Assembly (NCBI GenBank): GCA_964428655.1
Contig: CAYRYE010000002.1
Span: 2,251-66,250, forward strand
Length of the DNA: 64,000 nt
Reading direction: 5' to 3'
DNA from: an uncultured Gammaproteobacteria bacterium
GTDB lineage: Bacteria; Patescibacteriota; Microgenomatia; UBA12405; JAHJSD01
The first letter of the stretch is position 1. Each line of letters begins with the position of its first letter. A model generated the notes under the pieces. The model did no database searches, was not told where the DNA came from, and saw only the letters and a list, made by a program, of their open reading frames with translations. This document shows, piece after piece, positions 2,277 to 60,954 of this stretch. The translations under genes were made by a program, and so were the position numbers.

Positions 2277-2792
2277 TCAGTAATTTCTCGGAATAATGGT
2301 GGTTCTGAATTGGACTGAACTCGCTTGTTCTGCTTCTCCTTGACTCAGGCCGAAATTAATTGTTACTTTCGGAGTCTCTCCTGGATTAAAACTGCAAAGC
2401 GCAAATTCACTGCAATCAATGTCAACATTTTGAACCAGTATTGCCGGATTAGCGCTATCAGAGGCTATTTGGCTTGCACTACAAGTAAAGGTAGTCCACA
2501 AACCATCTCTACTTCTAATAGAAATGCTCCCCATGACAAGACCATCACAAATATCTCCAATGGTCTCTATCCCATTCGGATCTCCTATTTCCTCGGCGCC
2601 GCGAATCTTCCTCTCCACCACCCCTATGGCAAATGTGCCTTTTTGCTTTAATGTTTTGATTATTTTGGACTTAGTACTGCTCCTTACAACAACTAAGAAA
2701 ATACTGGCTGTTATCACTCCAATAATTCCCAAGATGGCAGTGGCTACCATTAATTCGATAATGGTAAAACCCTTATTATTAGCGGTCAACAT
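2277..2792 (-). CDS. type IV pilin-like / pseudopilin protein
   Basis: Prepilin N-terminus 'NNKGFTIIELMVATAILGIIG'. Start placed at the internal Met to avoid an 86-nt overlap. Cys-containing C-terminal domain. Confidence 0.55.
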   Translation of the reverse strand: MLTANNKGFTIIELMVATAILGIIGVITASIFLVVVRSSTKSKIIKTLKQKGTFAIGVVERKIRGAEEIGDPNGIETIGDICDGLVMGSISIRSRDGLWTTFTCSASQIASDSANPAILVQNVDIDCSEFALCSFNPGETPKVTINFGLSQGEAEQASSVQFRTTIIPRNY

Positions 2793-3216
2793 CCCAATCA
2801 GTGAAATAACTAGTAACCTCAAACTCTCTTTCCTGACTGCCATCATTCCAGGTAACTGTGACAAGTATCTCTACTTTTCTTGTTGAAGGAGTAGTGCTTC
2901 CATCCAACTCATAGTTTTGAAAGCTAAAAACGCGCTGGATTAAACCAAAATCGCTCATGTCCTCGGGGCTACTGATATATCCATCTTCTGCCCAAGTCCA
3001 GAAATCATCCAACTCATTCCTTTTCATGGCTTTTAAATCTTCCATTTTCTCCTGGGTTAGTTTGACTGCTACTGATCTTAATTTGGCCCCTCGAGCAATA
3101 CGATTGAAATAGATAACCGCAAAAACAAAACCGGATAAAATTAATCCGGTGATGCCAATAACAAAAACTACTTCAATCAAGGTTTGCCCCCTGCTAGCTA
3201 TATCCTTCATAATCAC
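2779..3216 (-). CDS. minor pseudopilin-like protein
   Basis: N-terminal 'RGQTLIEVVFVIGITGLIL' hydrophobic prepilin-like segment (GspJ/PilV-like). Confidence 0.5.
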   Translation of the reverse strand: MIMKDIASRGQTLIEVVFVIGITGLILSGFVFAVIYFNRIARGAKLRSVAVKLTQEKMEDLKAMKRNELDDFWTWAEDGYISSPEDMSDFGLIQRVFSFQNYELDGSTTPSTRKVEILVTVTWNDGSQEREFEVTSYFTDWDVDR

Positions 3217-3218
3217 AC

Positions 3219-3686
3219 TCAGGACAATTCTATCTCCCCTGATTCGGAAATATCAATCTGTTTTGTTTTATTATTATAAGTCACAGTGATTGATTCTACC
3301 TCATCCACCACTCCCGATAAGCTTTGAAACTTAAAGCTGGCAATCCCGCATTGAGCAAGGGAATCTAACTCTATTGTCTCGGGACTAATACTCACTTCAC
3401 TCCCTGTTCCATCACGACAATTGGCAGTGACAACAAGATCGCAGTCGGCGGCAACATCAATTTGGTAATTACTGAAAAACAAACACTCAGGGTTAACTGG
3501 TTTTTCTCCGTTGATCGCTTTAAACCTAATCAACCGAAACTGAGAAACCAATTCCAGGCCCACTGATTCTACAACTTTTTTTTCGCGATAATTAGTCCAG
3601 CTCGCCAAACTAAAACTGGTCATAATTCCCATAATAGTAACCACAACCATTAACTCAACTAAAGTGAAGCCGTTCTTCTTCATCAA
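3219..3686 (-). CDS. type IV pilin-like protein
   Basis: 'MMKKNGFTLVELMVVVTIMGIM' class III signal peptide (G|FTLxE). Confidence 0.7.
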   Translation of the reverse strand: MMKKNGFTLVELMVVVTIMGIMTSFSLASWTNYREKKVVESVGLELVSQFRLIRFKAINGEKPVNPECLFFSNYQIDVAADCDLVVTANCRDGTGSEVSISPETIELDSLAQCGIASFKFQSLSGVVDEVESITVTYNNKTKQIDISESGEIELS

Positions 3687-4084
3687 GGATTAGTCACTTG
3701 ATAATTACAATTCCCAGGAGCAGTTCCACAATTGCTTCCACAATCGTCGGTTCCACCCGCATCAAGATAAGCGCAGAGAACATAAGAATAACCAGTAGCA
3801 GAATTGTAATAATAAGAATAGCCTTTTGGATCTTGAAGCGTTGTTGTAAGATAATCACCGGCACTTAAAGTGGGAACTAAATTGTCCCAATTTACTGCCG
3901 GGTAAGTCGCGTTATCGGACCGATGCATCTCCAAAGCTGCCCGAACTTGTTCCAAATCAGATTTTCTTTTTGAGTCGCGTCCTTTTTCTCGAGCGGCTCG
4001 ATAGCTGGTTACTCCAATTGCAGAAAGAAGAATAACAATAGAAATAGCTACCAATAGTTCGATTAGTGTAAATCCTTTTTTCAT
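3683..4084 (-). CDS. type IV pilin-like protein with Cys-rich C-terminus
   Basis: 'MKKGFTLIELLVAISIV'. C-terminal 'DDCGSNCGTAPGNCNY'. ATGA overlap with the downstream gene. Confidence 0.7.
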   Translation of the reverse strand: MKKGFTLIELLVAISIVILLSAIGVTSYRAAREKGRDSKRKSDLEQVRAALEMHRSDNATYPAVNWDNLVPTLSAGDYLTTTLQDPKGYSYYYNSATGYSYVLCAYLDAGGTDDCGSNCGTAPGNCNYQVTNP

Positions 4085-4536
4085 TGTAAATGTTTAATAC
4101 AAAATTTATCTGTTCCCGCGCTAAAACTACAACTGTCACCTCCACAAGTACACCCGCCGCAATTACCACCAGTAGTATCATCTAAACCAGCAAAAAAACA
4201 ATAATAGTCAGCCGAGCAATTAGTCATATCGTAACTCCCTGAAGAAGTCGGATCGCTGGGCACTTTTTCTAAAAGCGTATAGCCTCCTGTAGCAAAGGTG
4301 CTTCCGCTTGACGGACAACTTGCTCCCGAAGGATAGCTTTCCGCGATTGTCAAGTACTGCTCCATTGCTTGCTGAATACTTAAAAGGTCATCTCGACGGC
4401 GAGCATCACGAGCTCGTCTCTTTCCCCCCTGATACGAAATAATTCCTATAATCATAAGAACGCCAATTATTGAGGCTGTTACCAGGAGTTCAATAAGTGT
4501 AAAACCTCCGAGTCGGAGGTCAAACTCTTTTTTCAT
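4081..4536 (-). CDS. type IV pilin-like protein with Cys-rich C-terminus
   Basis: 'GGFTLIELLVTASIIGVLM'. C-terminal 'GGNCGGCTCGGDSCSFSAG'. Confidence 0.7.
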   Translation of the reverse strand: MKKEFDLRLGGFTLIELLVTASIIGVLMIIGIISYQGGKRRARDARRRDDLLSIQQAMEQYLTIAESYPSGASCPSSGSTFATGGYTLLEKVPSDPTSSGSYDMTNCSADYYCFFAGLDDTTGGNCGGCTCGGDSCSFSAGTDKFCIKHLQ

Positions 4537-4551
4537 TATTTGTATTTATCC

Positions 4552-4989
4552 TTACTGTTGACTGGGCATACAATAATAAGTCCCATCATTAGCCCAGGGA
4601 TCACAATCACTATCACTCGCATTACCGCCACTACCTTGCTCTAAAAGTGCGCAAACACAATAACTGGCGGCGCTACAGTTGCCGTCATTCACATAATAGC
4701 TGTAATCGGCTTCACCTCTATTTCTCCCTCTCGGATCAGTGGGCGGCCAAGCTCCTTGCCAAACTGTCGCTGCCATTGTGTCACAACTGGCATAAGCATC
4801 ATTAACAGCATAATATTGCTCAAAAGAGTCACTAATTGCTTTAATATCTGATTTAGCTCGGCTATCACGGGCTTTTTTTTGAGCATTAGAATAAGAAACA
4901 ACACCAAGAGCTACTAAAATTCCAATAATTGAAATTACTACTAAAAGTTCAAAAAGCGTAAAGCCCAAATTTGATTTTTGATTTTTCAT
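4552..4989 (-). CDS. type IV pilin-like protein with Cys-rich C-terminus
   Basis: 'MKNQKSNLGFTLFELLVVISIIGIL'. Start at the internal Met gives a 1-nt TGATG overlap with the upstream gene. The 5' end carries 2 copies of the AAAAATC heptamer. Confidence 0.7.
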   Translation of the reverse strand: MKNQKSNLGFTLFELLVVISIIGILVALGVVSYSNAQKKARDSRAKSDIKAISDSFEQYYAVNDAYASCDTMAATVWQGAWPPTDPRGRNRGEADYSYYVNDGNCSAASYCVCALLEQGSGGNASDSDCDPWANDGTYYCMPSQQ

Positions 4990-5414
4990 CACTCTCCACA
5001 AGCATAATAACAATTAACAGTACAATCGCAAACACAAATGGTGCCGCAGCGACTTAGTGACGCGCTTATTTCCTGATCGCCAGCATTTTCCAGCGAGGCA
5101 CAAACAAGAAAGTTGTCACCATCAGCCCCAACACAATAATTATATTCTCGACCGTCAACTGAATCCTGAGGAACCTGCTGCATATAGGGAGACCAAGAGC
5201 TGCCAAAAGAAAAAGTCCCCGCCAAAGGATAGGATTGATTATCATTATAGTAAAGTCTTAGGGCGCTCCTTACTTCATTCAAATCACTTTTCCTTCGAGA
5301 ATCCCTAGCTCTTTCTCGAGAGCTGACAAAATTTGGCAAAATCACACCAGCCAAAATGCCAATGATAAAAATGACTACCAGTAATTCAATTAAGGTAAAG
5401 CCCTTATTGTTCAT
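4989..5414 (-). CDS. type IV pilin-like protein with Cys-rich C-terminus
   Basis: 'MNNKGFTLIELLVVIFIIGILAG'. C-terminal 'CGTICVCDCTVNCYYACGE'. Confidence 0.7.
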   Translation of the reverse strand: MNNKGFTLIELLVVIFIIGILAGVILPNFVSSRERARDSRRKSDLNEVRSALRLYYNDNQSYPLAGTFSFGSSWSPYMQQVPQDSVDGREYNYCVGADGDNFLVCASLENAGDQEISASLSRCGTICVCDCTVNCYYACGE

Positions 5415-5893
5415 GGATTGGGTGTTGGTCTAATATTAGAACTGCTCATTACGTAACAATAACTGCCGCCATAACAGGTATATAAATCTTGGCAGTCAGG
5501 ATCTTGGTCATTTTCCAGAGCAGCGAATAAATAAAAATAACTGCCGTCACCGTTATAACAATATTGACCATCAGATGATGGATCTTTAGGCAGCACTTTC
5601 ATGTAGATAGCATTATTAGTGGAAAACTCTGTCCCCCAATCAAGACCCACTCCATCTACTTCAATTATTCCTGTGTCGACGGAGGGAGGATAGGCCTCAT
5701 GATCGTTATAATACATCTCTACAGCCCGGGTCACATTACCTAAATCAGCTTTTCTTTGGGCGTCACGAGCTTTCACCTGGCTGGTCCGGTACTGACCAAA
5801 CCCAACTGTGGCCAAAATCCCCAAAATAGCCATCACTACCAATAATTCTAATAGGGTAAAACCCTCCCTGAGTTTTGACATCTTTATCCGCAT
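5411..5893 (-). CDS. type IV pilin-like protein
   Basis: 'LREGFTLLELLVVMAILGILA'. C-terminal Cys pairs. Confidence 0.7.
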   Translation of the reverse strand: MRIKMSKLREGFTLLELLVVMAILGILATVGFGQYRTSQVKARDAQRKADLGNVTRAVEMYYNDHEAYPPSVDTGIIEVDGVGLDWGTEFSTNNAIYMKVLPKDPSSDGQYCYNGDGSYFYLFAALENDQDPDCQDLYTCYGGSYCYVMSSSNIRPTPNP

Positions 5894-6516
5894 GTTTCAT
5901 CCGGACAACAATAATAATCGTTTGGGCCTTGAAATATCCTTTCACCCTGAAAACAACTACACACGCCGCAATCACCCACCATGTCATAAGGATTCGGACA
6001 ACTGGCTGTATGAGGCGCCGGTTCTCTGGTTGTTGGACAAATAAAAGTAGTGGCTGGAACATCGCCAACAGCCACATTGGGGCTGGAAACACCGTAATTC
6101 ACTTCTTCTCCATCAATCGTCTCCCCCTCTTCCAGACCTAATCTCGAAATAGCTGGATCATCCTCATTTTCCAAAAAAGTATAAGCCTTATACCAAACAT
6201 AACAAGAACCTTCAATGTAAGTACCCACAAGACCTTTATAGGATTGATTAGTTGCCGGATCACAAGGAACTTTCTTCAAGTAAGGATCCAAATCATCGCT
6301 GCCGCAATTTTCAAGGATGGCAATGTCTGGATAACAGCCGTTGTCATTATAATAATCTTCAAAAGCAACTCTAATTCTTTCTAAATCATCCTTTCTTTTG
6401 GCATCCCTGCCTTTATTTAGCTGCCCCCGCAGTCCAAAATAAATTAAAAGAAGGGCTAAAATAATCGTTATAACAATCAGAATCTCTATTAAACTCACAC
6501 CCTTATTTTTATTCAT
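5884..6516 (-). CDS. type IV pilin-like protein with Cys-rich C-terminus
   Basis: 'MNKNKGVSLIEILIVITIIL'. Start at 6516 gives an ATGA overlap with the pilD stop. C-terminal 'CPNPYDMVGDCGVCSCF...YYCCPDETCG'. Confidence 0.65.
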   Translation of the reverse strand: MNKNKGVSLIEILIVITIILALLLIYFGLRGQLNKGRDAKRKDDLERIRVAFEDYYNDNGCYPDIAILENCGSDDLDPYLKKVPCDPATNQSYKGLVGTYIEGSCYVWYKAYTFLENEDDPAISRLGLEEGETIDGEEVNYGVSSPNVAVGDVPATTFICPTTREPAPHTASCPNPYDMVGDCGVCSCFQGERIFQGPNDYYCCPDETCG

Positions 6517-7349
6517 TTGAAAATTGAGAATTGAAAATTGAAAATTTCCAGCATCTTTTCTCCCCAAAACCAACTAACAAAAGTCGCTAAAACTAAAAAC
6601 GGACCAAAGGCGATTTGCTGGCCAAATTTCTTTTTTTTCAACAAAATCAGTATGACACCCAAAACAGCCCCAGTCAAGAAAGCAAGATAAAAGCCCAAAA
6701 CAGCTTTGGGAAATCCTAAGAAAAACCCTATGAAAAAGGAAAACTTGACATCCCCTAATCCCATACCTCGACCCCTAGTAATTAAATGTAAAAAAAGAAA
6801 AAAAGCGGCCGATACCAAGCCGGTTAACAAATAATTTCCCCAAATTCCTCCGAGGTGAAGAAAAAAAGTCAAAACGATTAACCCTCCCACTGCCCAATCA
6901 GGAATAATTTGGTAATGGAGATCAAAAAGAAAAACAGCAATCAAGATAGTAGATAATAGATAGTAGATAATAGATAATAAAATATTGGTGGATGAAATGG
7001 CAAATTTCCACGTTAATAAATAAACAACTCCCGTTCCCAACTCCACCAGCAAATACTCCCAGGGGATAGGGGAATGACAAGTGCGGCAACGACCGCGAAG
7101 CAACAAGAAAGAAACAATCGGAATGTTTTCCCACCATTTCAATTGCTGACCGCAATGGTCACACAGTGATCTCCCCCTTAGCCAATCTAATTTTTTTTGA
7201 CTCTTTTTATCACCTTGCCCTGAACCGCGCTTCAGGGACCGCCAAACCACAACATTCAAAAAGCTGCCCACCGCAGTACCTAAACCAAAGACTAAAGCCC
7301 TAAATAAAAGTACCATCTCTAAAACAACTCGGGCACACAAATCATACAC
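6513..7349 (-). CDS. pilD: prepilin peptidase (A24 family, PilD-like)
   Basis: N-terminal Zn knuckle 'CDHCGQQL...CRTCHSPI'. Catalytic-Asp motif 'GMGLGDVKF'. Multi-TM protein. Contains an internal 14-nt tandem duplication at 6944-6971. Confidence 0.8.
   Translation of the reverse strand: MYDLCARVVLEMVLLFRALVFGLGTAVGSFLNVVVWRSLKRGSGQGDKKSQKKLDWLRGRSLCDHCGQQLKWWENIPIVSFLLLRGRCRTCHSPIPWEYLLVELGTGVVYLLTWKFAISSTNILLSIIYYLLSTILIAVFLFDLHYQIIPDWAVGGLIVLTFFLHLGGIWGNYLLTGLVSAAFFLFLHLITRGRGMGLGDVKFSFFIGFFLGFPKAVLGFYLAFLTGAVLGVILILLKKKKFGQQIAFGPFLVLATFVSWFWGEKMLEIFNFQFSIFK
6517..6544 (-). repeat. heptanucleotide tandem repeat (TTGAAAA/TTGAGAA)x4 in the last codons of pilD, abutting the start of the next pilin
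   Basis: Direct reading. Encodes '...FNFQFSIFK*' of PilD. Confidence 0.75.
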
Positions 7350-7900
7350 CGCCCCTCAGTAAACGGAGGAGGACAAGCTATCGGGGGGTTATTGTAACCA
7401 CCACCAGCATCTTTCGCTTCAGCACTTCCAGTGGCCACCTTATTAGTATTAGCTTTGGGTTCGTAACAAACATAAGTTGACTGCTCCGTACTATTATAAA
7501 TAACGTGTAGCCTATCAATATCGTCCGATCCACTGGCAAATTGTTCTTTTTTTCTAAAGGACGATTTTAATTCTCCGGTCGTTATTAATTCTCCACTGGT
7601 TGCACAAGTAGCATCACCGCAGACACCGGAAAGAACCGCCTCGCCCACATCATCATAATCTTCAGTTCCATCTCCCCAGGAATAGTCCTGGTTAGAAGCG
7701 TAATATCTTTCAACCGCCGCTAATAATTCAGCCGCGTCGTTTTTAAATCTGGAATCTCTAGCCTTATTAATTTGCTCAATTGGATTCAAAGTAGCTATTA
7801 AGGCTGCTGCCAAAATACCAATCAGGGCAATAACAATCAATAACTCAACTAATGTGAAACCTGATTTTTGATTTTTGATTTTTGATTTTTGATTTTTCAT
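7319..7900 (-). CDS. type IV pilin-like protein (possible major pilin)
   Basis: 'KSGFTLVELLIVIALIGILAAA'. Strong RBS AGGAGGTG 5 nt upstream of the ATG at 7900. Five AAATCAA heptamer repeats immediately after the ATG. Confidence 0.7.
   Translation of the reverse strand: MKNQKSKIKNQKSGFTLVELLIVIALIGILAAALIATLNPIEQINKARDSRFKNDAAELLAAVERYYASNQDYSWGDGTEDYDDVGEAVLSGVCGDATCATSGELITTGELKSSFRKKEQFASGSDDIDRLHVIYNSTEQSTYVCYEPKANTNKVATGSAEAKDAGGGYNNPPIACPPPFTEGRCMICVPELF
7861..7897 (-). repeat. perfect heptanucleotide tandem repeat (TTGATTT)x5 on the plus strand, (AAATCAA)n in the coding frame of the pilin
   Basis: Direct reading of the sequence. The repeats lie at codons 2-13 of the pilin gene. The unit length is not a multiple of 3. 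Confidence 0.85.
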
Positions 7901-7922
7901 ATTCACCTCCTTTCAAAGTTAA

Positions 7923-9140
7923 CTAAAACTGACTTGTTAAATTATAAATCGGCATAATGATCGCAATTACCAAAAAACCAACTCCCAGCCCTAATAAAAT
8001 CATGATAAGCGGCTCTATTGCGCTTGTCAAGGTTTTAACTCTCTGTTCTGCTTCCATTTCAAAATATCGCGAAATATTGTTTAAAATTTCATCCAACTTG
8101 CCGGTCTGCTCACCAGTAGCAACCAATTGGGAAACTATTGGCGGAAAAGCTGGATTCTCAGCAATTGAATCTGATAAAAGTAATCCTTTCTCCACCCTTT
8201 TTGCCGATCGGTTCAGACCTTGATGAAATACTTCGTTGCCCGAAGCTTCACCGACAATTTTTAAAGCATCCACTAGGGGAACTCCTGTTCCCAACAGGGT
8301 CCCCAATGTCCTGGATATCTCTGTTAGAATCATTGCCTTAGTCAGAGGACCCATAACAGGAACTTTTAATTTTAACTCGTCAAGTTTTTTTCTAGTTTCT
8401 TTGTTTTTCTGAGCGGCACGAAAAGCTATTACCAACCCAACAATTAACAAGGGAAACAACCAGACATTTCTAGAAACAAAATCAGCAATGCCGATTAAAA
8501 CTCTCGTTGCCAGCGGCATTTCGGTACCAAATTCAGAATAAAGTGAAGTCATCTTGGGAATTACAAAAATCATCATAATAAAACTAACCACAACCATACC
8601 GATAATAATGATTGCCGGATAGATCATGGCTCCTTTCACTTTGCCCACAAACTCCTTTTTTTTCTCTAAATTATTCGCTAGCCTAAGCAAAACTTTATCC
8701 AAAACCCCTCCTTCCTCACCAGCTTTAATTGAGGCGATATAAACATTTCCAAAAACTTTTTTCTCTTTCTCCAAGGCTTTTCCCAAAGGATCACCTCCCT
8801 GCACCTTGGCTAAAACCTCCTCAATTATCTGTTCCATCCTGCCGCTGACTTGTTCTTTAATCAGTCCAAGGGCTTCAGTTAGAGGCAAACCAACATTAAT
8901 CATTGTTGACAATTGTCTGGTAAAGCCTACTATTTGGTTCGAAGAAATCCGCATTAAAAAAATCGACCTGAAATAGCCCAAAATCGTTTTCCGCTGAGAC
9001 TCCAAAGACAAAACAACTAGATCTCTCTCCTTCAATAAAACAATGGCTCCCTTGCGCTCCTTTGCTTCAACAACACCCTTGATAGTTTTTCCCTGCCAAT
9101 TTTTAGCTTTGAAAACAAATTTCTTCATCTCATTTAGCAA
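7923..9140 (-). CDS. pilC: type IV pilus / type II secretion platform protein (GspF/PilC family)
   Basis: 405-aa polytopic protein with duplicated T2SS-F domains ('...LSTMINVGLPLTEAL...', '...LGTLLGTGVPLVDAL...'). Confidence 0.85.
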   Translation of the reverse strand: MLNEMKKFVFKAKNWQGKTIKGVVEAKERKGAIVLLKERDLVVLSLESQRKTILGYFRSIFLMRISSNQIVGFTRQLSTMINVGLPLTEALGLIKEQVSGRMEQIIEEVLAKVQGGDPLGKALEKEKKVFGNVYIASIKAGEEGGVLDKVLLRLANNLEKKKEFVGKVKGAMIYPAIIIIGMVVVSFIMMIFVIPKMTSLYSEFGTEMPLATRVLIGIADFVSRNVWLFPLLIVGLVIAFRAAQKNKETRKKLDELKLKVPVMGPLTKAMILTEISRTLGTLLGTGVPLVDALKIVGEASGNEVFHQGLNRSAKRVEKGLLLSDSIAENPAFPPIVSQLVATGEQTGKLDEILNNISRYFEMEAEQRVKTLTSAIEPLIMILLGLGVGFLVIAIIMPIYNLTSQF

Positions 9141-10206
9141 TCGTTATTTTTTGCTGTCTCAGATAACGATTAAGCTCGTCTGGCCTGATCGCATATGATT
9201 GAGCTGTTTCCAAATTGACTTTGCCTTGACGTATCCAACTTGCCAATGAGCGCTCCAAAAGGACCATGCCTGATTCTAAAGAGGTTTGAATTATATTATC
9301 GATCATGTGGGTTTTGTTCTCCCGGATAGCTGTTTTGACCGCGGGATTAGATAAGAGAATTTCTACTGCCGGCACTCGCGAATTGTCAACCGTCGGTATT
9401 AACCTCTGAGAAACAACCGCCCCTAAAACACTAGCTAATTGCAAACTAATCTGTCGCTTTGATCCTTCGGGAAAAACATCAATGATTCTATCGATTGTCT
9501 GAGGAGCTGAATTGGTGTGAAGGGTAGAAAGAACTAAATGACCGGTTTCAGCAATAGTCAGAGCTGAAGCAATCGTTTCTAAATCTCTCATTTCGCCGAC
9601 AAAAACAACATCAGGATCTTCTCTTAAACACGAACGCAAAGCCTTCTTCCAACTTAAAGTATCATGACCAACTTCCCTTTGAGAGATAATCGACTTTCGC
9701 GGTTCCAATATGTATTCAATCGGATCTTCAATGGAAACAATGTGAACTTTTTGATTCTCATTAATTTCTTTTAGGATCGAGGCCACTGTTGTTGATTTTC
9801 CATGACCGGTTGGCCCAGTCACCAGAATAAACCCTTGTCTTAAAGCGGCAAATTGATAAAGAATTTCAGGTAAATTCAATTCCTTGATAGTAGGAACCTC
9901 AGCCTGAATTGCCCTGAGGGCGATTGCCATACTGCCTTGGGCAAAATAGGCGTTGGCTCTAAAGCGGGAGCCATCCGGCAAGGCGTAAGAAAAATCTATC
10001 TCTTTATTGTCTAAAAACAATTGTTTTTGTTTTTCGTCTAAAGTGGCAAGAACCAGAGATTTTGCCTGTTCTGACTCAAGAACGCCGGCACCAGTAACGG
10101 CCTGTAGATCACCATTAATCCGCAATGTTGGTGGAATACCAACAATCAGGTGCAAATCAGAAGCTTTGTTTTTTATTGTTAATTCCAAAAGCTGTCTTAT
10201 ATTCAT
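9130..10206 (-). CDS. pilT: twitching-motility ATPase PilT
   Basis: Walker A 'GPTGHGKSTT'. 'VFVGEMRDLETI'. 'AETGHLVLSTLHTNSA'. 358 aa. Confidence 0.85.
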   Translation of the reverse strand: MNIRQLLELTIKNKASDLHLIVGIPPTLRINGDLQAVTGAGVLESEQAKSLVLATLDEKQKQLFLDNKEIDFSYALPDGSRFRANAYFAQGSMAIALRAIQAEVPTIKELNLPEILYQFAALRQGFILVTGPTGHGKSTTVASILKEINENQKVHIVSIEDPIEYILEPRKSIISQREVGHDTLSWKKALRSCLREDPDVVFVGEMRDLETIASALTIAETGHLVLSTLHTNSAPQTIDRIIDVFPEGSKRQISLQLASVLGAVVSQRLIPTVDNSRVPAVEILLSNPAVKTAIRENKTHMIDNIIQTSLESGMVLLERSLASWIRQGKVNLETAQSYAIRPDELNRYLRQQKITIAK

Positions 10207-10208
10207 GT

Positions 10209-11942
10209 TTAGAATTCTGCTACTCGCAAGACCTCCTCAATAGTGGTGATTCCTTCCAAAACTTTTAAATATCCATCCTGCTTGATGGTAATCATGCCTT
10301 TTTTTCTAGCCTCTCTCTCAATATCTAAAGCCGCTGATTTCTCAATAATTAACTTTGAAATTTGTTCATCAATCTCCATCACTTCAAAAATGCCAATCCT
10401 GCCATGATAACCAGTTTTCCCACACTCGTCACAACCCTTACCTCTCCAAAAGGTTAACTCATTTCTTACCGTCTGCTTCTGCTGACTTCCCAAGGCTGTT
10501 TGATAAAGGTTGCCCAAAACAGCTTTAAAGTTTTCAATTACTTTTGCATCTGGAAGATAACTTTCCTTACAATTAGAACAAATCTTGCGCAAAACCCTTT
10601 GGGCAACAACACAGGTTAAAGACGATACTAACAAGAAAGGCTCCGCTCCCATATCAATCAGTCGAGGCGGCGCCCCGGCGGCATCATTAGTGTGAAGGGT
10701 AGAAAAAACTAAATGGCCAGTTAGGGCGGCATGAACAGCCAACTGGGTGGTTTCTTCATCTCTGATCTCACCAACCATAATGATATCTGGATCCTGACGC
10801 AGAAATGAACGAAGAGCTGAAGAAAAAGTCAAGCCTGCCTGAGGATTTACTTGGACCTGATTAACTCCTTCCAATTGATACTCAACTGGATCTTCAATCG
10901 TCATCACATTAACTTTAATCGTACTTATTTTGCGCAGGGCTGAATACAAAGTAGTTGTTTTCCCTGAACCAGTTGGGCCGCAAACAATTAACATTCCCTG
11001 GGGTCGGCTTATAGCCTCCTGGACACTTCTCAATCCTCTTCCCCTAAGGCCCAGCTCCGTTAAGCTGGGAATTTTTGACTGTTTTTTCAAAAGCCGCATC
11101 ACTGTCTTTTCCCCATAAACTGTTGGGGCAGTCGAAACTCGCAGATCAACCTCATCGCCATCAGCAATAAAATTAAACCTCCCATCTTGGGGAATCCTTC
11201 TTTCGTCAATCTTCATATCAGATAAAATCTTTATTCTGGAAACTACGGCATCATGAACGCGTTTGGGTAAAATCAGTTTTTCTTGAAGGATTCCATCAAC
11301 GCGATACCGGACTCGTGTGTCTTTTTCTTGAGGCTCAATGTGAACATCTGAAGCCCGAGAACGAATGGCAAATTGTAAAATTGTCGAAACAACCTTAGCT
11401 ACCGGAGCCTCACGGATTACCTCATCTATATGCTCAAGATCAAGTAATTTACCCTTCTTTTCAGTTTCTTTCAATGCATGCTTTACTTGGGTCGTCAACT
11501 CTTGGTCATATCTGTCACTGATGGCTCTCTTTACCTGCTCAAGCAAAGCCATGTGGGGCACAATTCTCATTTCTGTTTTTTTCTCCAAAAACTCGATTGT
11601 CTCCAAATCCAAGGGATTAGCCATGGCCACCAAAAGCCTTTTTGTCTTTTCGTCAAAATCAAAGGGAATTAACCAATACTTCTCTGCTACACTCCGGGGA
11701 ACAAAGGAAACCGATACTGGAGAAAAGCCAACCTTGTCTAGATCAACAAATGGAACTCCATATAACTCTGCTTTTGCCTGGAAAATTTTTTCTCTACCAG
11801 CCAGCTTCTTCTTCTCAATGATTTCTTCTTCTGCCTCGCCAGTCTGTAAATGAAAAAGCTCTATTTTCTTAGCCTGCTCTTCGGTCAATATGCCTTTTTC
11901 TTTCAAAATAGAAGCGATTGTTCTTTTGGTTATAGCTGTCAT
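10209..11942 (-). CDS. pilB: type IV pilus assembly ATPase PilB (GspE family)
   Basis: Walker A 'CGPTGSGKTTTLY'. 'MVGEIRDEETTQLAVHAALTGHLVFSTLHTND'. Tetracysteine 'CSNC...CDEC'. N-terminal GSPII_E_N-like region. Confidence 0.85.
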   Translation of the reverse strand: MTAITKRTIASILKEKGILTEEQAKKIELFHLQTGEAEEEIIEKKKLAGREKIFQAKAELYGVPFVDLDKVGFSPVSVSFVPRSVAEKYWLIPFDFDEKTKRLLVAMANPLDLETIEFLEKKTEMRIVPHMALLEQVKRAISDRYDQELTTQVKHALKETEKKGKLLDLEHIDEVIREAPVAKVVSTILQFAIRSRASDVHIEPQEKDTRVRYRVDGILQEKLILPKRVHDAVVSRIKILSDMKIDERRIPQDGRFNFIADGDEVDLRVSTAPTVYGEKTVMRLLKKQSKIPSLTELGLRGRGLRSVQEAISRPQGMLIVCGPTGSGKTTTLYSALRKISTIKVNVMTIEDPVEYQLEGVNQVQVNPQAGLTFSSALRSFLRQDPDIIMVGEIRDEETTQLAVHAALTGHLVFSTLHTNDAAGAPPRLIDMGAEPFLLVSSLTCVVAQRVLRKICSNCKESYLPDAKVIENFKAVLGNLYQTALGSQQKQTVRNELTFWRGKGCDECGKTGYHGRIGIFEVMEIDEQISKLIIEKSAALDIEREARKKGMITIKQDGYLKVLEGITTIEEVLRVAEF

Positions 11943-12017: not shown

Positions 12018-12653
12018 ATGGCGCATATCATTATCGGTGGCACCAGTAGGCAACAACGAAAAAGGGTTCAAAAAATCGTTGAAAAACCGAGTGCCGATCT
12101 CAATAGAAATAATCCTGATTTTATAAAAATAGAATCAGAAAACAGTATTGGGATTGAGGTAATTCGCCAAATTAAAAGATTCCTTTCTAAGAAAAGCTGG
12201 CAGGGCGGGAGTAAAAAATTGGTAGTCGTGTATGATGCTCATAAAATGACTGTTGAGGCTCAAAATGCCTTTCTTAAAACTTTAGAAGAGCCTCCTCCTG
12301 ATTCCTTGATCATTTTAACTGTCAATAATAAAACATCGTTATTGCCAACAATTATTTCTCGCTGTCAGATAATTAAAATCAAAACTAAAACAAAGCAAAA
12401 ACTCAAAGGTTATTGGCAGAAATGGCAAGAAATAACAACCAGTCCTCTTAATAAAAGATTAGACCAAACACCCCAACAACTTGAAAAATGGATTAATAAC
12501 TATATTCTAGTGCTCCAAAAACAACTAACCAAGCCAAACGAAAATACAAAACAGATATCCAATTGGCTAAAAGAATTAATCATTGCTAAGCAAATGCTTG
12601 CAAATAATGTCAATCAACAAAGAGTCGCTGATTGGTTAATGATCAGAATATAG
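12018..12653 (+). CDS. holB: DNA polymerase III delta-prime-like clamp-loader subunit
   Basis: 'LKTLEEPP' motif and 'ISRCQIIKIK' sensor-2-like region. Short form without a canonical Walker A. Confidence 0.55.
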   Translation: MAHIIIGGTSRQQRKRVQKIVEKPSADLNRNNPDFIKIESENSIGIEVIRQIKRFLSKKSWQGGSKKLVVVYDAHKMTVEAQNAFLKTLEEPPPDSLIILTVNNKTSLLPTIISRCQIIKIKTKTKQKLKGYWQKWQEITTSPLNKRLDQTPQQLEKWINNYILVLQKQLTKPNENTKQISNWLKELIIAKQMLANNVNQQRVADWLMIRI

Positions 12654-12668
12654 TAAAATAAATAATAA

Positions 12669-13745
12669 ATGTTCCAGCCAAAATTTACTATCACCAGCAA
12701 AATCCTTCAAAATATTTCCCGAGTTGAGGGGTCTAGGGCGATTATTGACGCCTCACCCATTATCCCTGCCTATAAAAAACAATTTCAACAGGACGCCATT
12801 GTCCGCGCAGTCCATTATGGCACTAAACTGGAGGGCAATGATCTGAGTTTCAACCAAGTAGCCAAAGTAATTGAAGGCAAAAGAGTCCTAGCCGCTAAAA
12901 GAGACATTCAAGAAGTAATTAACTACCGTGAAGTAATGAATTTTTTAGAAAGAAAAGTCGCTAACCCTGAAAAAAAAGAAAATCTCTACTCTGAAGATAA
13001 TTTACTCAAAATCCACCGCCTGACGGTAGAGAAAATCGTTCCTCAAAAACAAACCGGACGCTTCCGTAAAATGCAAGTTACTATTCGCAACAGCGCCACT
13101 GATGAAATTTTCTTCCGACCGCCTTCTCCGGTTGAAGTTCCTTATCTTATCGGGGACTTTTTCTCTTGGCTGAACAGCCGGCCGGCCCAGCAAGTTCACT
13201 CAATCCTTCGCTCAGGCATTACTCACTATATTCTAGTCGCCATTCACCCCTTTACTGAGGGCAATGGTCGAACTTCCCGAGCCATGGCAACTTTGGTTCT
13301 AATGGCAGAAGGATATAATATCAAACGCCTCTTTGCCCTTGAGGAATATTTCGATCATCATGCCGAAGAATATTACAACTCCCTTCAGGCTGTTTCACTC
13401 CAACCAGGCGAACTCAGCCAAAAAGATCAAACTCCCTGGCTGGAATTACTCACCACCGCCCTTGTCACCGAATTCAAAAAGATCGAAGAAAAGGTACGCC
13501 AATTATCATCTGACATTCACTTAAAGAAAAAGCTGGGAGATAAACAAATTCCCATCAATGAAAGACAGATTAAATTGGTTGAACACATGCGCCAGTTCGG
13601 CGCTCTAACCATGTCTGATGCTCAAGAAATCGTCCCCATGGTTTCTGACGATACTATTTGGCGGGATTTAAGAAAGCTAATCGAGACCGGCATTGTTGAA
13701 AAAAAAGGAAGCACTAAAGGCGCTTATTACCGTTTGGTTAGCTAA
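12669..13745 (+). CDS. Fic-family protein (AMPylase-type) with C-terminal winged-helix domain
   Basis: Canonical Fic motif 'HPFTEGNGRTSRA' (HxFx[DE]GNGRxxR). Confidence 0.8.
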   Translation: MFQPKFTITSKILQNISRVEGSRAIIDASPIIPAYKKQFQQDAIVRAVHYGTKLEGNDLSFNQVAKVIEGKRVLAAKRDIQEVINYREVMNFLERKVANPEKKENLYSEDNLLKIHRLTVEKIVPQKQTGRFRKMQVTIRNSATDEIFFRPPSPVEVPYLIGDFFSWLNSRPAQQVHSILRSGITHYILVAIHPFTEGNGRTSRAMATLVLMAEGYNIKRLFALEEYFDHHAEEYYNSLQAVSLQPGELSQKDQTPWLELLTTALVTEFKKIEEKVRQLSSDIHLKKKLGDKQIPINERQIKLVEHMRQFGALTMSDAQEIVPMVSDDTIWRDLRKLIETGIVEKKGSTKGAYYRLVS

Positions 13746-13747
13746 TC

Positions 13748-15496
13748 ATGAAAATAAGGGAATTTACCAAATACCTGGTTAAACTGGAAGAAACTGCCGC
13801 TAGAAACGAAATCACTGTCATTTTGGCCAATCTGTTTAATCAAGCCTCAGTTAAAGAAATTGATAAGATATGCTATTTGGTTTTAGGTCAATTAGCTCCG
13901 CTCCATCGCTCAATCGAATTTAATTTAGCGGAAAAAATGATGATTCGGGTTTTAGCTCATACCTTTAAAAAACCAAAAAAAAAGGTACTTAGGTTATTTA
14001 AAAAAGTAGGCGATCTGGGTGACATCGCCCATCAATTATCAAATAAAAAGAAAGCCAAACCATTAAAGATCAGCGAGCTTTACACTGAACTCGCTACTAT
14101 TGCTAAACAAGGGGGGTTGGGATCGCAGGAAAGAAAAATAAAATTGTTTTCCCAGCTTATTGATAAACTCGATCCTTTAGCCGCTAAATATATAGTCAGA
14201 ATCCCAATGGCAAAGCTAAGGCTGGGCTTTTCCGATCTGACTATTCTTGATGCTCTTTCCTGGATGAAAAGCGGTGATAAAACTCTAAGGCCAAAATTAG
14301 AAAGGGCCTACAGTGTCAGTGCCGATATCGGTCTAGTGGCAAAAATCTTTAAGGAAAAAGGGGTAAAAGGGATTGAAAAAATAACTCCTCAAGTCGGCAT
14401 TCCCATCAGGCCCGCCTTGGCAGGAAGGTTAAACAACTCAGAAGAAATTATCGCCAAGCTAGAAAAACATGCCATCGAATGTAAATACGATGGTCTAAGA
14501 GTGCAAATACATATAGATAAAAACCGTTTTTTTAAAGAACAAGGTGATTCATTATTTAAAGATCAGAAATCATATGTTCGAATCTTTTCCAGAAGAATGG
14601 ATGATACTACTAATATGTTCCCTGATATTGCTAGTGCTGTCCAAGATTTAGCGGTAAAATCAGCCATTTTTGATGGTGAAGCAATTGGATTTGATCCAAA
14701 AACCGGAAAATTCCTACCATTTCAAGAAACAGCTCAGAGAAAAAGAAAATATGATATCAAGAAAACAGCTAAGAAAATACCCCTGAAGGCATTCCTCTTT
14801 GATTTGCTTTATCTTAACGGCAAATCTCTTCTAAAGAAACCCTTTAAAGAAAGAAGGCAGGCTTTGGAAAAAATCCTTAAAAAGCAAAAAAAAGGCCGGA
14901 CAATTAATCTCACTCCTCAGAGAATAGTTAAAAACCAAAAAGAAATCGATGAATACTTTCAGGAATGTGTTAAACAAGGGTTTGAGGGCACTTTATCGAA
15001 AAAGCTGGATAGTCCTTATCAGGCCGGAGCAAGAGATTTTACCTGGGTTAAATATAAACGGGCCATGAAATCTAAACTGGTTGATACAGTTGATTGTTTG
15101 GTTTTGGGCTACTACCGAGGCAAAGGAAAGCGATCTAAGTTCGGCATTGGCGCCTTCCTAACAGGCATTTGGGAGCCAAAGAAAAGAGCTTTCCTGACGA
15201 TTGCTAAAATTGGTACTGGTTTAACCGATAATCAGTGGAAAGAAATCCGTCAAAAAGCAGACAAAATCAAAGCTAAAGAAAAACCAAAGCAGTATCAAGT
15301 CCCCAAGGAGCTTGCCCCTGATGTTTGGGCCAATCCAGAAATAGTAGTAGAAATCAAGGCTGATGAAGTCACCAAATCGCCAATCCACTCAAGTAAATAT
15401 GCTCTTCGCTTCCCAAGAATGGAGCGGTTTAGGGCCAAAAAGATAGAAGACGTTACCAGTTTGAATGAGATTATAAAACTGTATAAAATGCAATAA
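13748..15496 (+). CDS. lig: ATP-dependent DNA ligase (archaeal/eukaryal type)
   Basis: Adenylation motif I 'KYDGLRVQIH' (KxDG). 582 aa with N-terminal DNA-binding, adenylation and OB domains. Confidence 0.8.
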   Translation: MKIREFTKYLVKLEETAARNEITVILANLFNQASVKEIDKICYLVLGQLAPLHRSIEFNLAEKMMIRVLAHTFKKPKKKVLRLFKKVGDLGDIAHQLSNKKKAKPLKISELYTELATIAKQGGLGSQERKIKLFSQLIDKLDPLAAKYIVRIPMAKLRLGFSDLTILDALSWMKSGDKTLRPKLERAYSVSADIGLVAKIFKEKGVKGIEKITPQVGIPIRPALAGRLNNSEEIIAKLEKHAIECKYDGLRVQIHIDKNRFFKEQGDSLFKDQKSYVRIFSRRMDDTTNMFPDIASAVQDLAVKSAIFDGEAIGFDPKTGKFLPFQETAQRKRKYDIKKTAKKIPLKAFLFDLLYLNGKSLLKKPFKERRQALEKILKKQKKGRTINLTPQRIVKNQKEIDEYFQECVKQGFEGTLSKKLDSPYQAGARDFTWVKYKRAMKSKLVDTVDCLVLGYYRGKGKRSKFGIGAFLTGIWEPKKRAFLTIAKIGTGLTDNQWKEIRQKADKIKAKEKPKQYQVPKELAPDVWANPEIVVEIKADEVTKSPIHSSKYALRFPRMERFRAKKIEDVTSLNEIIKLYKMQ

Positions 15497-58001: not shown

Positions 58002-59585
58002 TTAACTTCCAAATATTTCCTTGGCAATCTCATACAAATCACCATTCTTGTTCTGCTGGCTGTTTTCACTCTCTGTTTGGTTATCAATTTTAATCTCTTC
58101 CGGCTTATTTTCACTTCTCACAACCTTGTTTTCTCCCAAAACACACCTCATTTTAAGCCCTGGACAATAGATCTCCCCTAAACATTTCTCAACTATTTCT
58201 CTGTTTCTATTCTCTTCCAGTTTATCTTTGTGAAATTGATAAAAGACTTCCAGGGTGACCGTTTCTCCATCAAAAGCTTTTGGCCGAGTAGCTCTTAAAA
58301 AAGCAGCGACAGAGTGATTCATCGGTTTGATTGCCTCCAAAACTTCTCTCCACCGCTTTTCAATTTCCCCCAGTTCCTTCAGTTTTTTTTCTGTTCCAGT
58401 GCCAAGGGACTCTTCCGAGTCGGAAGAGGACGTTCCTGGATTGTCTAAAGATTCGTCAGGACTTTTCCGATCCCGGGCCTGCCCGCCATCGCTGTGCTCA
58501 GGCACTTGCAAGCGGGTCGTCTGCGTCCTTGTGCCGGATTTGACAAAATCTATCATTGCCAACTGGAATGGCAATTGAGGTAAAACTGTTGTTTTTTGCT
58601 CTACTAAAGCTCGGGAAAACAATCTAGAAAGTTTTACCAGCTCCCCTATCTCGAAAAGTTTAATCAGTTCAGTCAACTCAACGCTCCCTTTATCAACTTT
58701 CACCTTCAGCAAAATCAACTTCTGAATCAAATTGAGAAGAGCATTGAAATAATTACTGAAATCAGTTCCATCTTTAGCTAATGTCTCAGAAATTTCCAAA
58801 GCATCTTTCAATTTTTTTTCTCCCAACAGTCTCAAAATCTTTTCTGGTTTTTGACTCTGCCAATAACCAAGAGATATTTTGGCATCCTTCCATTTTATCT
58901 TTTTACCAAAAGATAAAACCAAACTTTCCAGTATTTTCTGGGCATCACGAAAACTACCATCAGCTAGCTGGACAATGGAATCAATTATTTTTTTATCAAT
59001 AGTCAACTTTTCTCCCTTAATTACCTTGTTTAAACAACAATTAACTTCACTCGGATTTCCTTTGTGGAAATTAATTCTTAATAACCTTGAGAGAACTGTG
59101 GGAATAATTTTTTCTGGATTGGTAGTACAGAGAACAAAAACAACATGGAGCGGCGGTTCTTCCAAGGTTTTCAATAAGGCATTAAACGCCTCTCTTGTCA
59201 ACATATGAACTTCATCAATGATGTATACTTTGTATTTTGTTTTAATTGGAGCCAAACCAACTCTTTCTTTAAGTTGACGGATGTCGTCAATACCTCTGTT
59301 GGAAGCGGCATCAATTTCCAAAATATCCAAACTGATTCCCTTGATAATCTCCTGGCAAATATCGCATCGGTTGCAAGACTCAACTCTAATACGTGAAACA
59401 CTATCGGGACAATTAATTACTTTAGCTAAAATCCGAGCCGCTGAAGTTTTCCCAACTCCTTTCGGACCTGCAAAAAGAAAAGCGTGAGGAATCTTTTTTT
59501 GTTTTAATATTTTTTTTAGCTGATTCCTAACACCCTGCAAATCCAATTCTTCAATGGTTTGAGGACGATACTTTAAAAAATACAT
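58002..59585 (-). CDS. dnaX: DNA polymerase III subunit gamma/tau
   Basis: 'KYRPQTIEEL'. Walker A 'GPKGVGKTSAARILAK'. Zn module 'CNRCDICQEI'. 'IIDEVHML'. 'LKTLEEPP'. Start taken at the internal Met aligning to the canonical N-terminus (the track ORF starts at 59615). Confidence 0.9.
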   Translation of the reverse strand: MYFLKYRPQTIEELDLQGVRNQLKKILKQKKIPHAFLFAGPKGVGKTSAARILAKVINCPDSVSRIRVESCNRCDICQEIIKGISLDILEIDAASNRGIDDIRQLKERVGLAPIKTKYKVYIIDEVHMLTREAFNALLKTLEEPPLHVVFVLCTTNPEKIIPTVLSRLLRINFHKGNPSEVNCCLNKVIKGEKLTIDKKIIDSIVQLADGSFRDAQKILESLVLSFGKKIKWKDAKISLGYWQSQKPEKILRLLGEKKLKDALEISETLAKDGTDFSNYFNALLNLIQKLILLKVKVDKGSVELTELIKLFEIGELVKLSRLFSRALVEQKTTVLPQLPFQLAMIDFVKSGTRTQTTRLQVPEHSDGGQARDRKSPDESLDNPGTSSSDSEESLGTGTEKKLKELGEIEKRWREVLEAIKPMNHSVAAFLRATRPKAFDGETVTLEVFYQFHKDKLEENRNREIVEKCLGEIYCPGLKMRCVLGENKVVRSENKPEEIKIDNQTESENSQQNKNGDLYEIAKEIFGS

Positions 59586-59660
59586 TAGAATAAAATTCAA
59601 AACATAAACGACCAAAATACAAAAAAAGTTTAAATATTTGAATTTTGGATTTAGATATTG

Positions 59661-59693
59661 TTTAGGATTTAGAAATTAGGATTTAGGATTTAA
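59661..59693. repeat. degenerate heptamer tandem repeat (AGGATTT/AGAAATT)x4 between the ybeY-like stop and the dnaX start
   Basis: Direct reading. Third heptameric microsatellite family in this window. Confidence 0.6.
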
Positions 59694-60339: not shown

Positions 60340-60954
60340 TCACTCATTGTCATTCAGACACTTGATCCAGTCTTTAGTATTGACAAGTCCATTACTATCA
60401 AGGTCATACTTGGCGTCTTTAGTTCCAAACTTCTCTTTGAATTCTGATATTGTACATTGAGTCACTTTTCCCCCCGCTGACGCCGTCGGCGCGGCAGCAA
60501 CCGAAGTTGGTGTGGCTACAACCACCGTCGGCGCAGCAACAACTGAAGTCGGAGTCACCACACCCGCTTCCCCAGTAGCACTCTTAGTTTTGAAAGAATA
60601 GGGAATACCATTGTTGTCATAAATTGTCTCCCCTACTCTAACCCGAAAATAATAAGTTGTACTTTCTTTCAAAGGAGAAAGAACAACTCGATGAACCGTG
60701 CTTGGCTGAGTTTCCAACGCCCGAAGCAAAAGACTAGCCGGAGTTGTTCCATATTCAACTACTCCTTGGGACTCTTTCTCCGTCTGCCAAGAAATACTTG
60801 CTGACTTAACATCAGGTTGAGCGCGCACACTTTTAGGCTCGGTACCGGCGGCCGCTCCGCTCAGATAAGTTTTAGCGGCCCGCAAACCAACTACTGCCAA
60901 AACGCCGCTTAAGAGTAAAATCACAATAATGATAACTGTTTTTATGTTTTTCAT
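60340..60954 (-). CDS. signal-anchored FN3-like protein with PT-linker and C-terminal single dockerin/EF-hand-like repeat
   Basis: FN3-like 'SASISWQTEKESQGVVEYGTT...TYYFRVRV'. Linker 'TPTSVVAAPTVVVATPTSVAAAPT'. 'DLDSNGLVNTKD'. Confidence 0.45.
   Translation of the reverse strand: MKNIKTVIIIVILLLSGVLAVVGLRAAKTYLSGAAAGTEPKSVRAQPDVKSASISWQTEKESQGVVEYGTTPASLLLRALETQPSTVHRVVLSPLKESTTYYFRVRVGETIYDNNGIPYSFKTKSATGEAGVVTPTSVVAAPTVVVATPTSVAAAPTASAGGKVTQCTISEFKEKFGTKDAKYDLDSNGLVNTKDWIKCLNDNE

Follow-up and report, generated by a model that had tools for sequence, protein, structure and literature searches.

The 64,000-nucleotide (64-kb) stretch of contig CAYRYE010000002.1 analysed here (the window) carries a type IV pilus locus, in which the leader of one prepilin is encoded by a perfect heptanucleotide microsatellite, (AAAAATC)5.1. 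The reading tentatively preferred here, at somewhat less than an even chance, is that this tract is a slippage-born, in-frame extension of the cleaved leader by three repeat units, which constitutes a latent frameshift switch of low rate. The tract is one case of widespread, recurrent period-7 arrays in type IV filament genes, where they occupy prepilin leaders, 5' regions and pilD. A preliminary description of the sequence had noticed the repeat and proposed that gain or loss of units turns the pilin ON or OFF by phase variation. The tract and the genes around it are as follows, with comparison contigs cited by handles such as L007 and a slash marking the predicted cleavage site.

7862-7897, minus strand: heptanucleotide microsatellite, (AAAAATC)5.1 or A(AAAATCA)5, encoding KNQKSKIKNQKS of the prepilin leader.
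7898-7900, minus strand: ATG start codon of the prepilin, from sequence and translation; JGI gene calls use the same start (193 aa).
7904-7911, minus strand: Shine-Dalgarno sequence AGGAGGTG, 3 nt upstream of the ATG, read directly in the sequence.
7859-7900, minus strand: 14-residue leader (class III signal peptide) MKNQKSKIKNQKSG, with the G/FTLVELL motif and Pfam N_methyl (PF07963).
7319-7900, minus strand: type IV prepilin gene, 193 aa, with 831 homologues and PF07963; syntenic in L007.
7923-9128, minus strand: pilC (T2SSF family), lying directly upstream of the prepilin gene across a 22-nt spacer.
6513-7316, minus strand: pilD, prepilin peptidase of the A24 family (Pfam A24_N_bact and Peptidase_A24 on L001), predicted to remove the repeat-encoded leader.

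Tandem Repeats Finder reported 7862-7897 on the minus strand as a perfect period-7 tract of 36 nt (5.1 copies, 100% matches, score 72). The minus strand reads GAAAGGAGGTGAAT ATG A(AAAATCA)5 GGT TTC ACA TTA GTT GAG, with the repeat beginning at codon 2 of the prepilin gene and with unique sequences, GGTGAATATG and GGTTTCACATT, on its flanks. Among perfect repeats of at least three copies with a unit of 5-12 nt, this tract is the only one in the whole 64 kb. Widening the census to units of 4-12 nt adds just one repeat, a 13-nt AGAA run. Sequences from 200 order-3 Markov simulations had a longest period-7 tract of 15.6 nt on average and of 19 nt at most.

The gene product, MKNQKSKIKNQKSG/FTLVELLIVIALIG..., has the hallmarks of a type IV prepilin, namely G/F-T-L-x-E followed by a hydrophobic helix (MKNQKSKIKNQKSG/FTLVELLIVIALIGILAA) and matches to PF07963 on both the protein and its homologues. 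The tract lies wholly within the leader, MKNQKSKIKNQKS-G/FTLVELL, and from this motif and established prepilin biology PilD is predicted to cut between G14 and F15. The assembly machinery is adjacent. Two T2SSE genes, one T2SSF gene and one Peptidase_A24 gene stand together on the identical locus L001, and L007 has the same order. On the minus strand of the window, the order is pilB (10209-11942), pilT (9130-10206), pilC, the prepilin gene and pilD, and downstream of pilD lie nine further prepilin-like genes (2277-6516, minus strand). All gene assignments in the pilus locus are backed by Pfam matches on the identical JGI contig. The repeat-bearing prepilin is probably the major pilin, judging from its position as the first gene after pilC, its ribosome-binding site, which is the strongest, and its widely conserved family. 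The named members among the 831 matches are Candidatus Shapirobacteria or Patescibacteria, and the pilin is probably that of a Microgenomates-type bacterium of the candidate phyla radiation.

When the gene was rebuilt with 0-11 units, the pilin was made at 2, 5, 8 or 11 units alone, with leaders of 7, 14, 21 and 28 residues respectively. The out-of-frame alleles terminated after 6-28 residues. Those of 0, 1, 3, 4, 6 and 7 units ended after 6-21 residues, and those one unit longer or shorter than the present allele after 14-20 residues. The 2-unit leader, MKNQKSG, is a canonical short leader, to which the present allele adds exactly three units (21 nt, KIKNQKS). Thus, a one-unit change would abolish the pilin, which is ON only at copy numbers such as 2, 5 and 8, and the tract is mechanically a frameshift switch. 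The preliminary description was correct in reporting five perfect copies from codon 2, a strong ribosome-binding site ahead of the ATG and a shift of frame with every single unit gained or lost. As a perfect tandem non-triplet repeat inside a reading frame, the tract has the structure of a simple sequence repeat contingency locus. It also passes the cut-off that PhasomeIt applies to candidate phase-variable repeats, at least three copies for units of 6-9 nt (PMC5953494). Its five copies lie at the very bottom of the proven heptanucleotide ranges (5-34, 13-38 and 1-13), though above this detection cut-off.

According to the preferred reading, replication slippage would make a microsatellite inside the leader-encoding part of a prepilin gene. 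The canonical 2-unit leader (MKNQKS-G), a state present in the paralogue at 4970-4986 and in L100, would have gained exactly three units, and the extension would be translated and then cut off by PilD together with the leader. Since the extension would leave with the leader and the mature pilin would be unchanged, the repeat could be tolerated at this site. Further change would occur at a low rate, on an evolutionary timescale, in net in-frame steps of three units. We infer the slippage origin, the major-pilin status and a passage through OFF intermediates; the slippage origin and the tolerance of the repeat are well supported. The data fit a low-rate process and fall short of a high-frequency contingency locus; the idea of a switch is only partly supported.

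The copy-number evidence for this population consists of assemblies and contigs. An identical protein is encoded on four JGI contigs and one NCBI contig, in each case with five units. The population contigs that were read match the window at 100% identity along as much as 17.6 kb and represent one clone, not independent strains. The cluster of proteins at 90% identity contained no variant of 186 or 200 aa and no truncated member. No sister strain was found in the databases searched with PilC, the next PilC being 70% identical. An exact scan of metagenome contigs with the upstream flank plus one unit gave no match in a collection that is a subset and that missed the locus-bearing JGI contigs.

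Among Logan contigs (k=31), four coming from the pilC side stop within the tract and one from the opposite side starts within it. These breaks were considered as a sign of copy-number heterogeneity and rejected. In simulations, a clonal 5-unit genome gave no break at k=31, and mixtures with alleles one unit longer or shorter predicted ends at 7868/7891 or 7869/7890, whereas the observed pair was 7868/7893. This pair was exactly reproduced by a second gene with a 34-nt tract ending in AAAAATGG, and a contig end at 7873 was reproduced by another gene that shares ATATG plus the tract. As the end points match other repeat-bearing genes with different flanks, they indicate that such tracts are common in those communities and do not indicate heterogeneity at this locus.

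A related clade gave a longer view of stability. Eight contigs of this clade (at least three to four lineages, 85-100% identical over about 900 nt) all have an analogous tract of the same 30-nt length. In the tract, 1 of 30 columns is variable, while the share of variable columns is 21% in the remainder of the gene, with many changes at third codon positions, and 32% in the 300 nt upstream. Copy-number polymorphism is therefore absent from this tract across about 14% divergence. L150 and L153, which are 88% identical, share an interrupted coding tract and differ by one 7-nt unit in an upstream non-coding arm, which indicates that unit-sized changes do occur where the frame is irrelevant.

Relatives of the window's gene carry the repeat in a patchy manner. 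In L007, from another species, the syntenic orthologue (pilin 52%, PilC 66% identical) begins ATG(AAAATCA)4.4 AAAGTTTT GGT, a perfect tract that differs from the window's in both length and register. Species with a closer PilC (67-70%) have short, repeat-free leaders, hence the patchiness. The contig L100 has the architecture of the window with two units, ATG A(AAAATCA)2 GGT TTT. Some homologues have long leaders (KIENWKLKI, SKFKIENS, KLKIKNS) that appear to be translations of decayed A-rich heptamers, and in L009 and L038 the DNA itself shows the decay. L009, L011-L013, L019, L022, L024 and others are Patescibacteria-type pilus loci titled 'uncultured Gammaproteobacteria bacterium' (metagenome-assembled genome, MAG TPA_asm), and are probably mislabelled.

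Metagenome contigs were also scanned for two AAAATCA units followed by GGNTTYACNYTNNTNGAR within 30 nt, and since the gap was left free, out-of-frame alleles were detectable. The scan, which targeted this one unit, returned 67 contigs in 55 sequence clusters, with a locus GC content of 31-71% and perfect tracts of 14-37 nt; their taxonomy was inferred from GC content and protein type only. From 2 to at most 5.3 copies of the unit precede GFTLxE. A canonical in-frame start lies upstream in the same open frame in 64 of the 67, an in-frame ATG lies no more than 30 nt from the tract in 49, and all three registers relative to the ATG occur. At most 2 of the 55 clusters (L108 and L148) had no canonical in-frame start, and L131 is cut by the contig end. 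Among the repeat-bearing proteins are pilins, both major and minor, as well as pseudopilins of type II secretion (Pfam N_methyl, GspH, weak T2SSJ). Repeat-bearing pilins of other lineages are orthologous to different paralogues in the window, and the repeat has thus been gained and lost. E-values and shuffles, here and below, leave phylogenetic non-independence unaddressed.

The two exceptional contigs resemble each other. In L108 (193-224) and L148 (4593-4630), no in-frame ATG, GTG or TTG was found. After a TAA, both continue in frame with AAA ATC and then the tract, which places an in-frame ATC two codons past the TAA. In L148 this TAA ends pilC and is closely preceded by GGGGGGGAG. Each of the two cases may be an OFF allele, a gene that starts at ATC or an instance of termination-reinitiation.

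The frequency of other units is known only from the set of 316 prepilin starts listed below, which was not selected by pattern. In this and three further sets, the counts of perfect tracts were as follows.

Pilus-locus DNA of the candidate phyla radiation (CPR), 242 kb (at least three copies, units of 4-12 nt): 7 of 12 tracts of period 7.
Other phyla, 140 kb (at least three copies, units of 4-12 nt): no tract of period 7.
Prepilin starts not pattern-selected, 316 (tracts of at least 17 nt): 16 of period 7, 1 of period 6 and none of other periods.
PilD homologues, 49, totalling 36.5 kb (tracts of at least 17 nt): 13 of 13 of period 7.

In leader regions without perfect tracts, the lag-7 autocorrelation was also raised (0.320, vs 0.309 +/- 0.004 in shuffles). 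The 13 pilD tracts are built from at least nine different units and cluster at residues ~83-148, after the N-terminal domain and ahead of the first catalytic Asp. The array at 6944-6979 of the window lies at the same hot spot. The pilD genes of L156 and L116 differ by exactly 21 nt, that is three TTTCGGA units, in frame, which is the same kind of step as that between the 5-unit leader of the window and the 2-unit state.

Arrays of this type in pilD are located at 6944-6979 (minus strand) in the window, at 7091-7158 in L007, at 3849-3880 in L040, at 3905-4041 and 4297-4336 in L009, and in L116, L139 and L156. Units in related bacteria include ATTATCT, AGTTACG, CTTCTTA, CTATCAT, AATTTCC, TTTTGGA and TTTCGGA, among others. 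An apparent pilD frameshift near the heptamer array of L009 was rejected: a run of N marks a scaffold gap there, and its flanks are duplicated.

Several observations weigh against the preferred reading of a slippage-born, tolerated extension. Neutral tolerance alone leaves the near-constant unit length of 7 unexplained, and likewise the persistence of an AT-rich unit where the GC content of the genome reaches 71%. The low variability of the tract at synonymous sites (1 of 30 columns, vs 21% in the rest of the gene) also tells against it. In addition, a tract growing by single units from 2 to 5 has to pass through two out-of-frame lengths, so that OFF states would have to be tolerated, and here the preferred reading shades into that of a contingency locus.

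A true contingency locus, in which slipped-strand mispairing would reversibly switch the major pilin ON (2, 5 or 8 units) and OFF at a useful rate, is on balance unlikely. Such a switch would hedge against pilus-specific phages or changing host contact, and the pilD arrays would do likewise for the whole pilus system. It would agree with the frame logic of the rebuilt alleles, with a copy number above the cut-off and with the concentration of non-triplet arrays in surface-structure genes (four in the ~10-kb pilus locus, vs one imperfect array in the remaining 54 kb). The exclusive period 7 of the pilD tracts, with at least nine units at one site, and its near-exclusive occurrence at unselected prepilin starts (16 of 17) point the same way. 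Independent, different units at one orthologous site are a classic sign of selected mutability, and in-frame differences of three units imply passage through OFF states. However, the copy number is uniform in all assemblies of the population and identical in the eight contigs of the related clade. Established phase-variable genes are often OFF in sequenced genomes. Here a canonical in-frame start is missing from no more than 2 of 55 clusters, each of which has an in-frame ATC. The tracts top out at 5.3 copies, whereas proven heptanucleotide loci have 5-38 and vary among strains (PMC2651432, PMC5953494), and the contig breaks are explicable without allele heterogeneity. The phase-variation switch of the preliminary description is therefore partly supported, by its frame logic, a copy number above the detection cut-off and the concentration of arrays in pilus genes, whereas every look at actual variability, from the uniform assemblies of a single clone to the near-absence of OFF alleles and the other origin of the breaks, was negative or uninformative. 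The tract has the structure of a contingency locus and its relatives are nearly without OFF alleles; accordingly, it is not classed as a demonstrated member of that group.

It is doubtful, although it deserves mention, that the period-7 arrays are an undescribed conserved feature of type IV filament genes across phyla, selected as frameshift switches or as a translation or regulatory element and not left behind as slippage debris. This broader proposal, held with the same reserve, would cover the (AAAAATC)n leaders, sometimes with a (GATTTTC)n arm, and the heptamers at the pilD hot spot.

The arm just mentioned belongs to several high-GC prepilin and pseudopilin genes, in which it lies upstream as (GATTTTC)n and is reverse-complementary to the leader tract, (GAAAATC/AAAAATC)n. 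It was seen in L135 (~4700-4800, plus strand, and a second pilin near 5252), L147 (~3950-4050, plus strand), L097, L117, L136, L150, L153, L152 and L158. A long hairpin is predicted around or just after the start region, with -52 kcal/mol in the case of a 153-nt segment from L147, for example. The two arms share one open frame (...FQFSIFDFRL...KSKIKNQKS...G/FTL). Pairing of (AAAAAUC)n with the (AAUUUUC)n at the end of pilD was considered and rejected, with 5 of 7 A-U pairs per unit by inspection.

A third possibility, distinctly unlikely, is that the tract is a sequence- or composition-specific cis-element in mRNA or DNA, the leader peptide being a by-product. An A-rich, unstructured tract (about +4 to +39) would keep the initiation region open or bind a factor, and in some lineages it would pair with the upstream (GATTTTC)n arm into a regulatory hairpin. 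Such a role would suit an AT-rich unit that is kept at up to 71% GC in codons expected to be rare there, and the conservation of the related tract at synonymous sites across ~14% divergence. Tract length tops out near 37 nt, which is about the region in which mRNA structure affects translation initiation, and the tract is predicted to be unpaired in the mRNA of the window. In some high-GC loci (L094 and L118), an in-frame ATG lies just downstream of the tract, which may there be 5' untranslated region. The long predicted hairpins of L135, L147, L097, L117 and L136 would also agree. On the other hand, an unstructured A-rich ramp needs no perfect 7-nt periodicity, and the repeat comes and goes between paralogues and between species. 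A specific binding sequence is hard to reconcile with the pilD arrays, whose units at a single site are many, unrelated and for the most part T-rich. A complementary arm like that of the high-GC loci was searched for in the window and none was found. The fold of the 191-nt start region is no more stable than that of shuffled sequences (z = 0.12), and Rfam covariance models gave no match at the tract or at the hairpin loci. That the tract is a chance low-complexity stretch or an assembly artefact is effectively refuted: short-read assemblers can miscount repeats and the Logan contigs do break within it, but 36 nt fit well within one read, the independent JGI and NCBI assemblies both have five copies, simulated tracts stay at or below 19 nt, the gene has an unbroken reading frame and 67 other contigs show the same feature.

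The closest known system in mechanism is the Neisseria opa repeat, which is located in the signal-peptide region. It is a pentanucleotide (CTCTT/CTTCT) coding repeat of 7-21 copies (PMC5953494). As in the window, a non-triplet repeat just after the start codon encodes a cleaved part of a surface protein, and copy number sets the frame. The opa repeat differs in its 5-nt unit, in its strain-variable 7-21 copies as opposed to five fixed ones, and in its Sec signal peptide in place of a class III leader. Its high-frequency switching is experimentally proven, whereas switching of the window's tract is a prediction of its frame logic. Closest in unit length are Neisseria pglE, (CAAACAC)5-34, H. influenzae HI1369, (AACAACC)1-13, and H. 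influenzae hmw1A, (AATTTTG)14, together with the hmw promoters, (TGAAAGA)13-38 (PMC2651432, PMC5953494). The genic examples act by frameshift, and pglE acts on pilin through glycosylation. In contrast to the tract described here, these repeats are longer and strain-polymorphic, including frameshifted alleles, and none lies in a prepilin leader. They are also confined to one genus each, whereas the AAAAATC tract spans organisms of 31-71% GC. Neisseria pilC1 and pilC2 contain a homopolymeric tract of 9-20 copies (PMC5953494). Similarly to the proposed switch, and there established, an in-frame repeat turns a type IV pilus component ON or OFF by slipped-strand mispairing; the tract is mononucleotide, however, and the gene encodes an adhesin or retraction modulator, not a pilin.

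Leaders of type IVb and Tad pilins are longer than the 5-7 residues typical of type IVa, basic, and cleaved after Gly. The leader of the window likewise exceeds the type IVa length, is basic and would be cleaved after Gly. Those leaders are not known to be microsatellite-encoded, though, and the mature N-terminus in the window is of the type IVa kind (FTLVELL). A literature search found no publication on heptamer repeats in prepilin leaders or pilD, and nothing relevant on the AAAAATC unit or on CPR with phase variation. One candidate, PMC6851277, was set aside as it deals with another gene, whose repeat is an in-frame 9-mer.

Type IV pili are thought to be the route of host attachment and DNA uptake in the Patescibacteria (CPR), which are tiny and host-dependent, and pili are common phage receptors. 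Should the tract prove to work as a switch, this large uncultured group would have its first candidate phase-variation system. Three observations suggest that the evolution or expression of these genes follows a rule not yet recognised: the same AT-rich heptamer marks prepilin leaders across 31-71% GC, period 7 is almost the sole class of short repeat at prepilin starts and in pilD, and the proteins change in exact steps of 21 nt (seven residues). For annotation, the tracts affect the leader lengths and start codons assigned to prepilins in metagenomes.

Three further heptamer arrays lie in the pilus locus of the window.

4970-4986, minus strand: 2.4 copies of the AAAAATC unit at the start of the paralogous prepilin gene 4552-4989, leader MKNQKSNLG; a short repeat state.
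6517-6546, minus strand: AATTTTC (= TTTTCAA) x4.3, 91% identity, with one mismatched unit, encoding the PilD C-terminus ..FNFQFSIFK before the stop.
6944-6979, minus strand: AGATAAT x5.1 at 89%, or a perfect 14-mer x2.4, inside pilD, encoding LLSIIYYLLSTIL, before the first catalytic-Asp motif.

The preliminary description had reported two unit copies opening the pilin 4552-4989, four TTTTCAA units as the last codons of pilD next to the ATG of the following pilin, and a third heptamer family upstream of dnaX. All three were recovered, the second with its one mismatched unit. The array inside pilD is a fourth one, absent from that description. The array at 6517-6546 abuts the ATG of the next prepilin gene (6514-6516), and the pilD stop overlaps this ATG as ATGA. 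The frame of this prepilin (5884-6516, minus strand) is open upstream through (AATTTTC)4 to a TTG at 6573 (minus strand). A start there would give the long leader MVLGRKDAGNFQFSILNFQMNKNKG, and the annotated ATG at 6516 may not be the sole start. A pilin of L148 has a comparable repeat-encoded leader of the FNFQFSI type, MIKIFNFQFSISYLRSSQKG.

The array upstream of dnaX (58002-59615, minus strand) consists of TTTAGGA x4.6 (84% identity, 59661-59692) and is part of a longer array, 59629-59692. The latter is imperfect, with an 18-21-nt super-period, and is contained in the 67 nt that separate dnaX from a ybeY-like gene. Elsewhere in the window, outside the pilus locus, no other heptamer array reaches four copies. 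An assignment of dnaX to 12018-12653 was rejected, that gene being merely holB-like.

L007 has many more period-7 arrays, at 5878-5917, 5951-5981, 9336-9437 and 11441-11473. Their sites include the pilC-pilin spacer (AAGTAGG x5.7), the space between pilin genes and the leader of another pilin (TTCTAAA x4.7), and period-8 arrays occur in other spacers of the same pilus locus. The holB-like gene of the window is adjoined by genes for a Fic-domain protein (12669-13745) and an ATP-dependent DNA ligase (13748-15496; DNA_ligase_A N, M and C domains), and the same neighbours are also kept beside the pilus locus in L007. Elsewhere in the window, in-frame repeats of 21 nt (60485-60552) and 12 nt (61075-61124) encode Pro/Thr/Ala/Val-rich linkers (...TPTSVVAAPTVVVATPTSVAAAPT... 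and ...TTVPTTAPTTAPTSVP...). The two proteins concerned are neighbours and appear secreted or membrane-anchored.

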